Part shown: piece by piece, positions 14,019 through 27,812 of the stretch
Position numbering within the stretch: the first letter of the stretch is position 1
Layout: each line of letters starts with the position of its first letter
Source: an uncultured Chlamydiae bacterium
GTDB taxonomy: Bacteria > Chlamydiota > Chlamydiia > Chlamydiales > JAJFMB01
Length of the DNA: 64,000 bases
NCBI GenBank assembly: GCA_963696295.1
Contig: CAVOJR010000001.1
Coordinates: forward strand, 704,001 to 768,000
Direction of reading: 5' to 3'
Made by a program: the position numbers and the translations under genes
The notes under the pieces: model-generated
Seen by the model: only the letters and a program-made list of their open reading frames with translations
What the model was told of the DNA's origin: nothing
The model's database searches: none

Positions 14019-14852
14019 ATGAAAAAGTTCTGGTTGCTATTCTTACTCTGCACCGCCTGCCTTCATTCTGAGGAAAAAACCGTATTTCTCACTTCTATCA
14101 TACGCGATCAAGCCCACGTGCTCCCCAGATATTTAAAAAATATCGAAAACCTCGATTACGACAAAAAGCTGATCACCGTCCATTTCTATACGTATAACAA
14201 CGATGACCGGACCTCCCAGCTTTTGCAGGATTGGGCCGGGCAAAACAAAAACCGCTATAGAGATATTGCGGTCGAGACGCTGCAATATTCTGACATTCCC
14301 CTGCTGCCCAACTACAAGAAAAAAGAGTGGATCTACGAGGAAAATAGCGTGGTGCAAGAGCTCATCAATAAAGGCCTGTCAAAGGGCAAGGAGAGCGATT
14401 ACTATTTCTTCCTCGCCCCCACTTCCCTGATTGCCCCCTTTACCCTGAAAGAACTCATCGCCAAAGACAAACCGATCATTGCCCCCCTCTTGGTCAGCAT
14501 ACCGGAATGCGATGATCACTTCGCCAACTTTTTCTACAAAACCACTGAGGACGGCTACTATGCCCACGACGATAATTACACCAAAATCCTCTACAGGTGG
14601 GATCCGGGCGTCTTCCAGGTGCCTTTAGTCTATAATGCCTATTTGATTAAGAGGGAATATCTGGATAAACTGAGCTTCGGCGAAGAGAGCTCTGATCTCT
14701 ATTTTGTGGCTTTTGCGCGCAATGCCAGGAAGAACGGGGTCGAACAGTACCTCACGAACGAAAAAAATTACGGCGTGCAAATTCATTTTACCTCTTCAGT
14801 CACAAGGGAGGAAGAGATCCGCAAACTCAAAAACCTTTTACTGCTGCCATGA
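14019..14852 (+). CDS. Secreted GT-A fold protein resembling the COLGALT N-terminal / PLOD accessory domain
   Basis: Signal peptide; motifs IIRDQAHVLPRYL..IENLDYDK, NNDDRT..LLQDW, TLKELI..DKPIIAPLL, ANFF....EDGYY, GVFQVPLV..AYLI, AFARNARK.GV..YLTN...YG follow the pattern of animal collagen galactosyltransferase/lysyl hydroxylase domains. Confidence 0.7.
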   Translation: MKKFWLLFLLCTACLHSEEKTVFLTSIIRDQAHVLPRYLKNIENLDYDKKLITVHFYTYNNDDRTSQLLQDWAGQNKNRYRDIAVETLQYSDIPLLPNYKKKEWIYEENSVVQELINKGLSKGKESDYYFFLAPTSLIAPFTLKELIAKDKPIIAPLLVSIPECDDHFANFFYKTTEDGYYAHDDNYTKILYRWDPGVFQVPLVYNAYLIKREYLDKLSFGEESSDLYFVAFARNARKNGVEQYLTNEKNYGVQIHFTSSVTREEEIRKLKNLLLLP

Positions 14853-15802
14853 AACTGCTCATCTCCCTTCTGCTCCTGATCTCTCCCCTCTATGCCCTGA
14901 AAATCAACATCATCAGCTGGACAAATGGAGTTGGCTTAGAACAGGATATCGACATCCTTTACAAGGAACTGACCAAACTGGGCCATCAGGTCGATTTTAT
15001 CCATTTTTACGATTTTGATCCGAAGCCCAAAGCCGACATCAATATCTTTGTGGAGCTCGTGGAAGAATTGCACTTTGAGTTGGCCTCCAAAAATTACCTG
15101 ATCCCAAATCCTGAGTGGTTCACAAAAGAGCCTTTAATCCCTAAATTTGATCTGATTTTGTGCAAAACAAAAGAAGCGATGCGCCTCTTTCAACCCTTAA
15201 ATCCTCATGTCGTCTATCTCGGATTCACTTCAAAGGACTGCTTTTATGAAAATATCCAAAAAGATTACCGCTCCCCCCTCCACCTGGCCGGCCACAGCAT
15301 CCAAAAAGGGACCGACGGTCTCCTCGCTCTTTGGAGAACTAATCCGAAGCTGCCTCTCCTGCACTTGCTTAAGCATCGGGAGCCCTTTTACCCGGGCATC
15401 GCTAACGTAGAGCAATTCACAGAATATCTCCCCCTTTCCGAGTTAAGATATTTGCAAAACCGAAACGCCCTCCACCTATGCCCGAGCGAAACCGAAGGGT
15501 TTGGCCATTACATCGTAGAGGCCTTGAGTACCGGAGCTGTCGTCGTCACGACCAATGCGCCGCCGATGAATGAATTTGTGAGCGATCCGAGATGCCTGGT
15601 AAATTACAATACTACCTGGCAGCAGAATTTAGCGACAAACTACTATTTCGATCCTGAAAGTTTGAGAGCTACTTTGACAAATTTGCTCAATTTACCTGAT
15701 GAAGAATTACAAAAGATCGGCCGGCAAAACCGCCAGAAATACCTTGAAATCGACCGGTCTTTCAAACAAAGAATCGCTGAAATATTTGGAGAAGCAAAAT
15801 GA
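14849..15802 (+). CDS. Glycosyltransferase family 4 (GT-B) with signal peptide
   Basis: QKGT and CPSETEGFGHYIVEALSTGAVVVTT (EX7E motif); N-terminus MKLLISLLLLISPLYA. Confidence 0.88.
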   Translation: MKLLISLLLLISPLYALKINIISWTNGVGLEQDIDILYKELTKLGHQVDFIHFYDFDPKPKADINIFVELVEELHFELASKNYLIPNPEWFTKEPLIPKFDLILCKTKEAMRLFQPLNPHVVYLGFTSKDCFYENIQKDYRSPLHLAGHSIQKGTDGLLALWRTNPKLPLLHLLKHREPFYPGIANVEQFTEYLPLSELRYLQNRNALHLCPSETEGFGHYIVEALSTGAVVVTTNAPPMNEFVSDPRCLVNYNTTWQQNLATNYYFDPESLRATLTNLLNLPDEELQKIGRQNRQKYLEIDRSFKQRIAEIFGEAK

Positions 15803-16965
15803 AACGCCTGATTACCTTTTTGTGCCTGATGTGCCCCCTGGCGCTGTTTGCCAACGTAAAAGACCCCCTGCTGGTGGTTTCCCTGATGATCAAGAATGAA
15901 GTGCATTCGATCGAAGACACCCTTGAGCCGCTCGTGAGCGGAGGGATTACAGCCTATTTGATATTCGATACCGGCTCTACCGACGGCACGCTGGAGGTCG
16001 TGGAAAAGTTTTTCAAAAAACATAAACAGGTTAAAGCCGTCGTCAAACAGGAACCCTTTGTCGATTTTTCCACTTCGCGAAACCGCGCTTTAGACCTCGC
16101 CAAAGAGTCATTTCCTAAAGCCGAATTTATTTTTATGCCCGACGCCGAGTGGATCTTGCATGATGTTCCCGGCCTGCTCGCGTTTTGCGAAAAAGAGAGG
16201 GACTCCAATCTACCCTCCTATATGATCAGGGTGCTCGGAGGATCGCTGGACTACTACTCCACCCGCCTGGTCCGGGCCAATGGTCCCGCTCATTATGTCG
16301 GCAAAGTGCATGAAGTGATCATCCCCGCCACAGCCGTTAAAGCTCCCGACACCGTCTATCTGGAGCAAAGGTGCTATGAGAAAGGGCTCGCCCAATCTAA
16401 AGAAAGATGGAAAAGGGACCGCACCATTTTAGAGGAGGCCTTTTTAGAAAATCCGACCGATGCGAGAACCCTCTTTTATCTCGCCCAGACCTGCAGCTGC
16501 CTTGAAGATTACCAGTCCGCCTACCAATATTATCTCATCCGCTCCAAATTGAAAGGATGGCCGGAAGAAGACTATATGACCCTCTACCGGTTGGCTGAAG
16601 TGGTTGAAGAGCTCGCTAAAACGAACCAGACCTATCTGCCTGAAATGATCTATTACTATATGGAGGCTTATAATATGCGTCCTACCCGCGCCGAGCCCCT
16701 GGTCAAAATCGCCGAACACTATTTAAGAAATGGGAAATACCCCTTGAGCTACCTTTACGCCGAGAAAGCCACTAAGATTGAGTACCCATCCGGCGACACC
16801 CTGTTTGTCGACAAGTACATGTATGATTTTACGCGCTACGATATTTTGAGCCAGTGCGCCTGGTATGTGGATCAAAAAGAGGTGGGCTATGAGGCCTTAA
16901 AGAAAGCGATAGCCTACGCTCCCGATGCCGAGTATCTGAAAGCCAATCTCAGCTTCTACGAATAG
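15799..16965 (+). CDS. Glycosyltransferase family 2 with C-terminal TPRs and signal peptide
   Basis: LMIKNE, DTGSTDGT, DFSTSRN.AL, DAE, GKVHE, then TPRs (DARTLFYLAQ, RPTRAEPL). Confidence 0.9.
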   Translation: MKRLITFLCLMCPLALFANVKDPLLVVSLMIKNEVHSIEDTLEPLVSGGITAYLIFDTGSTDGTLEVVEKFFKKHKQVKAVVKQEPFVDFSTSRNRALDLAKESFPKAEFIFMPDAEWILHDVPGLLAFCEKERDSNLPSYMIRVLGGSLDYYSTRLVRANGPAHYVGKVHEVIIPATAVKAPDTVYLEQRCYEKGLAQSKERWKRDRTILEEAFLENPTDARTLFYLAQTCSCLEDYQSAYQYYLIRSKLKGWPEEDYMTLYRLAEVVEELAKTNQTYLPEMIYYYMEAYNMRPTRAEPLVKIAEHYLRNGKYPLSYLYAEKATKIEYPSGDTLFVDKYMYDFTRYDILSQCAWYVDQKEVGYEALKKAIAYAPDAEYLKANLSFYE

Positions 16966-26862: not shown

Positions 26863-26888
26863 ACCGCGCGCACGGTCGCGTGCGCGCC
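26863..26888. terminator. GC-rich intergenic stem-loop
   Basis: GCGCGCACG-GTCG-CGTGCGCGC between collagen 7 and the barrel gene. Confidence 0.5.
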
Positions 26889-26894
26889 CTCGTC

Positions 26895-27812
26895 CTACCA
26901 ACAGCATCCACACGGATTCTCCGCAATCTTGACAAAGGTCAGGGTAACGGATGCACCGGGTAACACAGCTGACCCATTTGCAGGAGTGAGAGTAATAGGA
27001 GTAGTCATCCCGGACAAATTAACCAGTGATACTGTTTGTCCTTTATTCAAGGGCTCAATAGCAAAGCCTACGATATTTGCTGTCGGAGTAGTTGAACCAG
27101 AAGGAGTAATGACTCCTGAAGTATCTGACATGGAGGCGCTGCCATTAATAGACAAGCCAACCACAATGGTTCCCCCAGAATAATTCGCATTGACAACCCA
27201 CTGAATAAGGTACACTCCGCTGCAAGGAATCGTCACAGTTCCATTATTGATAGACCATCCATATGGAAAATTAGAGTATACGTTAAGAGGACCAATGATT
27301 GTTAAGGGTGGTGTTACTGTAATAGAAGCAAAACTCCCGAACTTGGCCCAGGCCGTAAACTCATCGCAACAATTGTTATTACAACAATCATTGCAACAGT
27401 TATTTCGGTTGTTTCTGCAGCAGCCGTTATTATTGTAACCATTGTTGCAGCATCCATTATTATTCCTGCCGCATCCATTGTTACAGCAATTGTTGTTGCA
27501 GCAATCATTATTATTGCAACAACCATTACAATTTCCGCAAGCCGTACCAGGTGTGCCGCCAGGCCCCTGCATACCATTCATCCCATCGCGGCCGGGAGGA
27601 CCCATTGGACCTTGACATCCCGGAGGGCCTTGAGGACCTGGAGGACCTTGCGGGCCTGGAGGACCGCAACAGCTTTTGCAGCCAAAGGAAACATTATCCA
27701 GCTTGAATATAGACCTGTCTTTTTGGACGATAGTATCTTCTTCTGATGCCTGAGCATAGCTGCAAAAAAGCGATGCCACAGCTATCAGTAAACTTAGGAG
27801 AATTTTTTTCAT
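26895..27812 (-). CDS. Collagen-like protein 7 with Cys/Asn (CCNNN) tract
   Basis: Signal peptide; short GPP/GPQ run; [16 protein letters not shown]... tract; [13 protein letters not shown] head motif. Confidence 0.88.

Follow-up and report, generated by a model that had tools for sequence, protein, structure and literature searches.

A candidate chlamydial locus for glycosylated collagen-like surface fibers, with glycosyltransferases that carry export leaders

Background

What would a chlamydia make with seven collagen-like proteins encoded among glycosyltransferase (GT) genes, and in which compartment would their sugars be added? The question is raised by a window of 64,000 nucleotides (G000:C1:704001-768000) in the genome of an uncultured Chlamydiae bacterium (3.43 Mb, two contigs, 97% complete), in which an original prediction had placed a collagen glycosylation and surface-coat system at positions 14019-27812. 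All 12 genes were located exactly where it had put them: seven encode Gly-X-Y proteins whose heads are of BclA/C1q type, four encode glycosyltransferases, and one encodes an inverse-autotransporter barrel without a passenger. We favor, with moderate confidence, the reading that this is a locus for glycosylated collagen-like surface fibers that would receive their sugars after export. Four TLC nucleotide carriers and a cysteine-rich protein resembling OmcB are also encoded in the genome, so the organism is a chlamydia, as had been supposed.

Collagen-like proteins

Seven open reading frames (ORFs) scored 27.6-82.7 bits against Pfam Collagen (cut-off 27.2), and a hydrophobic N-terminal stretch (Kyte-Doolittle 9-residue mean 2.2-3.4) was identified on each of them, as on all 12 proteins of the block including the barrel. 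Of the nine Gly-X-Y ORFs in the whole genome, seven fall within these 10 kb, which exceeds chance. The heads of all seven proteins align with one another, and four matched BclA_C, all under the Pfam cut-off. We folded one head of the seven, the jelly-roll head of collagen 6 (pLDDT 84.3), and a fold search with it returned ExsFA/BxpB, F-BclA, BclA, and C1q heads (best E 3e-8, TM 0.7-0.78); by sequence, the head profile gave weak C1q matches only in PDB (E 0.015), and it was the fold search that settled the identity. With leaders, collagen stalks, and BclA/C1q-type heads found together on seven of seven ORFs, the description of these proteins as secreted and BclA-like was borne out. Chance antisense Gly-X-Y was considered as a source of the repeats and rejected, since Pfam matches, leaders, and heads coincide on the same ORFs.

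Collagens 1 (17779-18804), 2 (19010-20014), and 3 (20136-21119), all on the minus strand, have 47, 49, and 49 triplets with Thr/Ser at Y in 32, 27, and 34 of them, respectively. Collagen 4 (23302-24087, minus strand, 5 Cys), collagen 5 (24197-25024, plus strand), and collagen 6 (25050-25802, minus strand, its start 12 bases past the barrel gene) each have 28 triplets, with 5, 8, and 7 Thr/Ser at Y, and collagen 5 has 3 Lys there; collagen 7 (26895-27812, minus strand) has 14 triplets, no Thr/Ser at Y, a Cys/Asn-rich linker, and 28 Cys in total. Over the whole block, Thr/Ser occupies Y in 113 of 243 triplets and Lys in 6 of 243. Collagens 1-3 have Thr/Ser at 93 of 145 Y positions, whereas collagens 4-7 are Thr-poor (20 of 98), a detail in which the original prediction fares less well. 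A Cys before or at the helix start was found in 6 of the 7 (collagens 1, 2, 4, 5, 6, and 7, counting Cys27 of collagen 6; 5 of 7 strictly within 25 residues). By the 25-residue criterion, 22 of 32 collagens from chlamydiae and 15 of 40 from other bacteria have such a Cys; from this we infer that the fibers may be anchored by disulfides.

Two giant collagens lie elsewhere in the genome (G000:C1:1019338-1024017 and C1:2564994-2570372), Gly-Ala-Thr rich, with 302 and 341 triplets and, by eye, an RHS/YD-like N-terminal half; each adjoins a gene for a Cys-rich Legionella_OMP-like barrel. A GT2-TPR gene directly follows the second, making a second collagen-GT2-TPR pair in this genome.

GT2-TPR enzymes

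Two enzymes of the block, both with leaders, have a GT2 (GT-A) domain followed by TPR repeats: one encoded at 15799-16965 (plus strand; PF00535 and TPR) and one at 21289-23271 (minus strand; PF00535 41.4 bits). The latter lies between collagen genes and is fused to a C-terminal beta-propeller, as originally described. Searched against solved enzymes, a profile of 12 GT2-TPR domains was nearest to GmaR (E 7.5e-23) and SunS (E 1.9e-22), which places the enzymes with SgtA, GmaR, and SunS; by these sequence matches, GT2-TPR is of the protein-glycosylating type. The TIGR04195 score was 28.6 (cut-off 350). The DxD motif is intact in the fusion and in the C1:2570614 GT2-TPR copy. The propeller model (pLDDT 89.8) matched GH130 mannoside synthases/phosphorylases in Foldseek (E 7e-10), and PF04041 was matched by 8 of 21 homologues but not by the window's own domain.

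In a FastTree phylogeny of 152 of 166 candidate GT2-TPR domains, the stand-alone chlamydial enzymes form a clade amid other bacteria (support 99) that includes three leaderless records, and the chlamydial fusions form a clade that falls among viral fusions (support 99; deep nodes weak). The window's 15799 copy sits on a long branch, with the caution that long branches require.

Linkage to collagens

In our phylum sample, Collagen was identified in 156 of 401 genomes, GT2-TPR in 178 of 400, and IAT_beta in 185 of 401, with Collagen in 1 of 30 genomes of the small-genome family f36. GT2-TPR was present in 131 of 156 collagen-positive vs 47 of 244 collagen-negative chlamydial genomes; no P value is given for this co-occurrence because kin are not independent.

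Linkage was scored in 60 of the 178 genomes, taken in order of rank, over regions of at most 20 kb about the best GT2-TPR match (1.02 Mb), with glycogen synthase (GlgA) loci as the control, taken from 40 of the 57 of these genomes that carry GlgA (0.72 Mb), and any ORF with at least 8 triplets within 10 kb was counted as a collagen. Part of the refuting condition set beforehand was that GT genes of relatives would not be linked to collagen genes; a collagen lay near 23 of 60 GT2-TPR loci and 0 of 40 GlgA loci, so the prediction survived. The corresponding counts were 10 vs 0 for IAT barrels, 15 vs 0 for propellers, and 1 vs 0 for GT4 genes of the window's type. Linkage was seen in 5 of 7 chlamydial families, with 15 of 21 loci in f8, 3 of 7 in f5, 2 of 5 in f3, and 1 of 2 in f38, and weakly or not at all in f32 (2 of 22), f27 (0 of 2), and f30 (0 of 1). 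Viewed from the collagen side, GT2-TPR lay within 15 kb in at least 13 of the 52 genomes for which both positions are listed.

The pairing is not confined to chlamydiae. From the best 80 of 508 named-genome GT2-TPR loci, 79 were used, 60 of them non-chlamydial, and a collagen ORF lay within 8 kb at 35 of these 60, a count that has no matched control. Neither have the 79 viral propeller loci, where GT2-TPR was identified in 44 and collagen in 19. With 23 of 60 chlamydial, 35 of 60 other bacterial, and 19 of 79 viral loci, the pairing is old and wide rather than specific to chlamydiae. Among linked collagens of at least 20 triplets, Thr/Ser takes 79% of Y positions in chlamydiae, 71% in other bacteria, and 77% in viruses; the 37 linked chlamydial collagen ORFs have Thr/Ser at 79% of Y and Lys at 1%.

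Further, in Proteobacteria (L250, L265, L269, L271, and L276: Bradyrhizobium, Xanthobacter, Rhizobium, and others), leaderless fusions of GT2-TPR with a COLGALT-like domain lie beside long Thr-rich collagens, and at several other loci the collagens have, by eye, twin-arginine-like leaders. GT2-TPR-propeller fusions, present at 44 of the 79 viral loci (L296-L349, many on contigs labelled GVMAG), often adjoin Gly-X-Thr fibers.

Export leaders

A leader was scored as a hydrophobic stretch before the GT-A domain with a 9-residue hydropathy mean of at least 2.0, a hydropathy heuristic rather than SignalP; proteins cut at the 5' end were left unscored, as were those with an internal domain (2 chlamydial, 0 chlamydial-titled, 0 untitled, 5 from other bacteria, and 8 viral). 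By this heuristic, 92 of 95 chlamydial GT2-TPR proteins have a leader vs 1 of 57 from other bacteria, together with 21 of 21 chlamydial-titled records (which overlap with the 95) and 3 of 3 untitled ones. Viral leaders were identified in 5 of 33, all five with an in-frame Met just before the domain, and the GlgA control gave 1 of 39. In 78 leaders, the uncharged stretch had a median of 15 residues, with a positive n-region in 70, a small-residue motif in 68, and a lipobox in none. A short hydrophobic core, a positive n-region, and a small-residue motif are typical features of Sec signals that are cleaved.

Leaders occur in at least 2 separate chlamydial GT2-TPR clades whose sister groups are leaderless, and repeated gain is suggested because the stand-alone clade, the fusion clade, and the 15799 copy all carry them. 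They were also identified on COLGALT-like proteins (38 of 45), on GT4 proteins (58 of 66 scored; 54 of 120 unscored), and on GT25, GT92, methyltransferase, and prolyl-hydroxylase-like proteins. The signal-peptide-like leaders would place enzymes of nucleotide-sugar type in the periplasm or inclusion lumen. Judged from sequence, the compartment is probably what is new in chlamydial GT2-TPR, as nearly all relatives in other bacteria lack leaders. Both the pan-bacterial and viral pairing and the confinement of export leaders to chlamydial enzymes had been missed by the original prediction.

Barrel, COLGALT-like, and GT4 genes

The predicted outer-membrane barrel was recovered at 25815-26843 (minus strand), where a protein of 342 residues scored 24.6 bits against IAT_beta (PF11924, cut-off 22.3) with an Atlas value of 0.97, although it fell short of E 1e-5 when the whole genome was searched. 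It is Cys-rich and stops just past the barrel and linker. Its tail is conserved, as is a Cys that the tail carries close to the C-terminus, and no Ig-like passenger follows. By its sequence it is thus not a full inverse autotransporter (type Ve): the barrel is present and the passenger absent. A listed collagen lay within 10 kb of 7 of 69 short barrels (frame of at most 480 residues) and 1 of 78 long ones. Among 28 directly read barrel loci, from which two full-length invasin-like loci were excluded, a collagen lay within about 1.5 kb at 6, all of them among the 19 short barrels and none among the 9 long ones. When the barrel was modeled as a complex with collagen 6 in three copies, the score was 0.00 (mark 0.32), which is evidence neither way. 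In the nearest relative (G002, L375:334-12565), an IAT-like barrel directly precedes a collagen gene of about 11 kb that is frameshifted, probably by long-read errors, and in another genome (G015, L032:7504-10068) GT2-TPR and an IAT_beta barrel share one 854-residue ORF, by fusion or assembly join.

An overlapping three-gene GT operon was identified as described, its plus-strand genes sharing 4 bases at each junction: the COLGALT-like gene (14019-14852), the GT4 gene (14849-15802), and the 15799 GT2-TPR gene. The first encodes a leader and a single GT-A domain in 277 residues, without a catalytic second domain. Its PDB matches were human COLGALT1, in the GT1 domain (E 1.5e-16), the accessory domain of LH3 (E 2.5e-10), and mimivirus R699 (E 2.2e-6). 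Alignment shows that most chlamydial homologues keep Asp-Cys-Asp, whereas it is lost in the window's clade. GT1 of human COLGALT1 is described as non-catalytic (PMC12003778), and the COLGALT-like product is, from its sequence, probably a non-catalytic partner. The earlier view of this gene as a COLGALT/PLOD-like collagen enzyme found little or no support: it has only the non-catalytic GT1 domain, its DxD is replaced, and, with Lys at so few Y positions, hydroxylysine chemistry is unlikely here. The family occurs in 36 of 400 chlamydial genomes, 35 of which hold collagen; a collagen lay at 2 of 20 COLGALT-centered loci (one marginal) and at 3 of 5 more COLGALT-like loci among the GT2-TPR loci. 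One genome (G071, L213:7959-11552) has a 1197-residue GT2-TPR, COLGALT-like, and PLOD-GT fusion beside a collagen and an IAT barrel. A PLOD GT search of the window's genome gave no match, and the same search matched nowhere at all. No lysyl hydroxylase was named in non-exhaustive genome searches, and no oxygenase lies in the block; a leader-bearing prolyl-4-hydroxylase-like 2OG-Fe(II) oxygenase is encoded at G000:C1:2048008-2048802, unlinked to collagens.

The GT4 (GT-B) protein, also with a leader, matched PF00534 (36.6 bits) and has 1232 homologues; in PDB nothing fell under E 0.4. Extension of the glycan by GT4, as originally proposed, found little backing, with this family at 1 of 60 GT2-TPR loci, four genomic paralogs that sit apart from collagens, and no collagen in 14.9 kb of one metagenome GT4 locus. 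Equal longest-contig sizes were noted in four pairs of closest COLGALT-like and GT4 homologues (P0003/P0051, P0005/P0048, P0007/P0052, and P0044/P0132). The data suggest that the DxD-less COLGALT-like protein and GT4 travel as a pair.

Proposed mechanism and alternatives

Three steps together make up the favored reading. Very probably, the Sec pathway would carry the seven collagens over the inner membrane, and trimerization would come from the BclA/C1q heads. The GT2-TPR domains would then, as family and linkage make likely, put the first sugar on Thr/Ser of Gly-X-Thr/Ser, by analogy with SgtA an N-acetylhexosamine (HexNAc), and their targets would be mainly collagens 1-3 and the two giant collagens. 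There is also a good chance that these enzymes are themselves exported and act in the periplasm or inclusion lumen, where the heuristic leaders would place them.

With the enzymes outside, a nucleotide sugar would be needed outside the cytoplasm, from the host vacuole or a putative exporter, and this sugar donor is the weak point of the mechanism. The genome holds nucleotide-sugar pathways and a type II secretion locus, and a search of it for nucleotide-sugar transporters gave none over the cut-off. One sub-cut-off EamA match beside metK was set aside as a candidate; it is presumably an S-adenosylmethionine carrier. A precedent for the donor exists in Chlamydia trachomatis, where host UDP-glucose reportedly enters the inclusion lumen and serves a secreted glycosyltransferase (PMC4829429), although that enzyme is exported by type III secretion.

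Three further roles are tentative. On its modeled fold, the GH130-like propeller might add or trim beta-mannose; GT4, perhaps partnered by the DxD-less COLGALT-like protein, possibly extends the glycan; and the passenger-less barrel could export or hold the fibers, if it acts as ZirT does for ZirS. We regard as somewhat doubtful a bolder version, in which environmental chlamydiae would have repeatedly put a whole protein-modifying toolkit (GT2-TPR, GT4, GT25, GT92, COLGALT-like, and GH130-like proteins, FkbM methyltransferases, and a prolyl hydroxylase) under Sec signals. They would run a collagen finishing like that of the endoplasmic reticulum in the periplasm or inclusion lumen, on nucleotide sugars from the host vacuole or a putative exporter, and the fibers would leave through, or be held by, intimin-type barrels that have no passenger.

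Several observations, besides the lack of a transporter over the cut-off, weigh against fibers glycosylated after export. No collagen was found at 37 of 60 GT2-TPR loci (all but 2 of 22 in f32), and 47 GT2-TPR genomes have no Collagen match at all. In the nearest relative, GT2-TPR and propeller genes lie together, collagen-free over 40 kb, with the collagen locus about 160 kb off; since this genome splits them, the modules recur but the whole block does not, and a single conserved block is not supported. Collagens 4-7 are Thr-poor, and the 15799 copy reads Asp-Ala-Glu at a motif that is Asp-Ala-Asp in 80 of the 86 matches from chlamydial homologues. As to the leaders, 13 of 78 are at least 19 residues long, 30 of 78 are net positive past the stretch, and three GT2-TPR genes of one genome (G019) are leaderless. 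Leader-bearing GTs and methyltransferases are spread through the genome apart from collagens, so export is not specific to collagen.

The collagen-free loci and the GT4 paralogs and leader-bearing GTs away from collagens would equally suit a general surface-glycan island, whose exported GTs make polysaccharide, glycolipid, or glycans of many proteins, with the collagens at most some of the substrates and neighbors by virtue of a plastic region. The same chlamydial islands are dense in GT92, GT25, FkbM, and propeller genes, and GlgA is a housekeeping control, not another surface island, which leaves room for this explanation. We nevertheless consider it unlikely: GT2-TPR is of a protein- or peptide-acting type, the linked collagens are Thr/Ser-rich at Y, and the pairing recurs, often next-door, both across unrelated phyla and among viruses, which lack lipopolysaccharide.

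Improbable, in our estimation, is a cytoplasmic, SgtA-like glycosylation in which the leaders would be uncleaved anchors that hold the catalytic domain inside near Sec and the chains would be modified before export. It would require no outside nucleotide sugar or transporter in a genome that produces its own nucleotide sugars, and other bacteria do pair leaderless enzymes with collagens, 15 of 36 with hydrophobic leaders; but the short length, positive front, and small-residue end of the chlamydial enzyme leaders are those of cleavable Sec signals, and they resemble the leaders of the block's collagens and barrel.

An animal-like chemistry, in which hydroxylysine or hydroxyproline would be formed and then glycosylated by the COLGALT/PLOD-like protein, is very improbable despite the true COLGALT1-GT1/LH3-accessory homology, the presence of collagens in nearly all genomes with this family, the G071 fusion beside a collagen, and the leader-bearing prolyl-4-hydroxylase-like gene, because catalysis in the human enzyme does not come from GT1 (PMC12003778) and the window's copy has no DxD, Lys is rare at Y, the PLOD GT search, which matched nowhere, gave nothing in this genome, collagens lie at few COLGALT-centered loci, and the hydroxylase is 1.3 Mb distant.

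Other features of the region

No unrelated gene interrupts the block, as had been stated: the 813-base gap behind the 15799 GT2-TPR gene (16966-17778) is occupied by five diverged head-to-tail 172-bp copies of its 3' end and stop codon (16843-17714, plus strand; TRF score 1366; copies 78-97% alike). An assembly artefact was rejected as the source of this array, as the copies are graded at 78-97% identity, and the array stands outside the proposed mechanism. Genome-wide, 22 of 74 arrays (period at least 40, at least 2.5 copies) start at the end of an ORF of at least 150 residues, compared with a mean of 6.4 and a maximum of 15 in 1000 random placements. Right behind the block (28014-32645) lies a gene for a 1543-residue surface protein with LVIVD repeats and He_PIG, with no sign of belonging to it. 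Promoter and terminator scans gave counts inside the shuffled range (23 vs 16.9 and 17 vs 18.3, respectively).

Comparison with known systems

Two forms of bacterial protein O-glycosylation are known, with cytoplasmic nucleotide-sugar enzymes or with membrane enzymes that use lipid-linked donors outside the cytoplasm. Soluble enzymes of nucleotide-sugar type exported with their substrates would, if true, be a third, eukaryote-like arrangement, and would raise the question of the source of the donor. The distribution of collagen (156 of 401 genomes, 1 of 30 in f36) would mean that a glycosylated fiber coat may be common and overlooked on environmental chlamydiae and lacking in a reduced lineage. 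Our data extend SgtA-like collagen glycosylation to many phyla and giant viruses, and the enzymes are candidates for producing glycosylated recombinant collagen. A literature search of mostly open papers, whose supplementary tables may list such genes, gave no description of chlamydial collagen-GT loci or such exported enzymes, two reviews did not mention chlamydiae, and a Rhabdochlamydiaceae genome paper had no mention of collagen.

BclA is a leaderless spore exosporium protein. Bacillus BclA, F-BclA, and ExsFA/BxpB (PDB 1wck, 9h38, 7r5i, and 8d02) share with the window's collagens a collagen stalk and a C1q/TNF-type head (TM 0.7-0.78). Unlike them, the seven window collagens, of a chlamydial genome, all have hydrophobic, Sec-type leaders as well as N-terminal cysteines, with 13-23% identity and BclA_C below its cut-off.

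GmaR transfers O-GlcNAc to flagellin, and SunS transfers S-glucosyl to a peptide. Listeria GmaR and Bacillus SunS (PDB 22ao and 7msp), the nearest solved enzymes to the GT2-TPR profile, are cytoplasmic and have other substrates, and TIGR04195 stays far below its cut-off. The propeller is like GH130 mannoside phosphorylases/synthases and the MTP mannosyltransferases of Leishmania in its predicted fold (TM 0.5-0.65), but is only 10-17% identical and fused behind GT2-TPR.

Homology to COLGALT1 GT1, the LH3 accessory domain, and mimivirus R699/L230 extends over 230 residues, and the animal collagen enzymes likewise act in an export compartment. Unlike COLGALT1 and LH3, the window's protein has no DxD or catalytic second domain, no linked lysyl hydroxylase, and almost no Gly-X-Lys to act on; by sequence, the locus is not a COLGALT/PLOD system.

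In Salmonella, the intimin-type barrel ZirT secretes separate Sec-exported neighbors (PMC2270342, PMC4943183). The window resembles ZirT-ZirS in having an intimin-type barrel with separately encoded, putatively Sec-exported neighbors downstream, here a likeness of gene order alone, but ZirT has Ig-like domains and Ig-fold cargo, whereas the window's barrel is passenger-less and its neighbors are collagens.

A close parallel in mechanism is the SgtA-BclA3 system of Clostridioides difficile, where SgtA uses UDP-GlcNAc as the donor to place O-GlcNAc on Thr residues in collagen peptides of BclA3 (PMC7157674). In both, a GT2-TPR gene adjoins a Gly-Pro-Thr collagen with a Thr-rich Y position, and the GT-A domain has a DxD, in the window in the fusion copy but not in the 15799 copy. 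SgtA is leaderless, beginning at the first GT-A strand as judged from the printed cloning primer (PMC7157674), and serves the spore exosporium, whereas in the window export leaders stand on the enzymes as well as on their putative substrates. The window's bacterium is an intracellular diderm, and its locus further includes a barrel, a propeller domain, a GT4, and a COLGALT-like gene. By its genes, the window's system would thus work like SgtA-BclA3 but differ from it in compartment and host structure.

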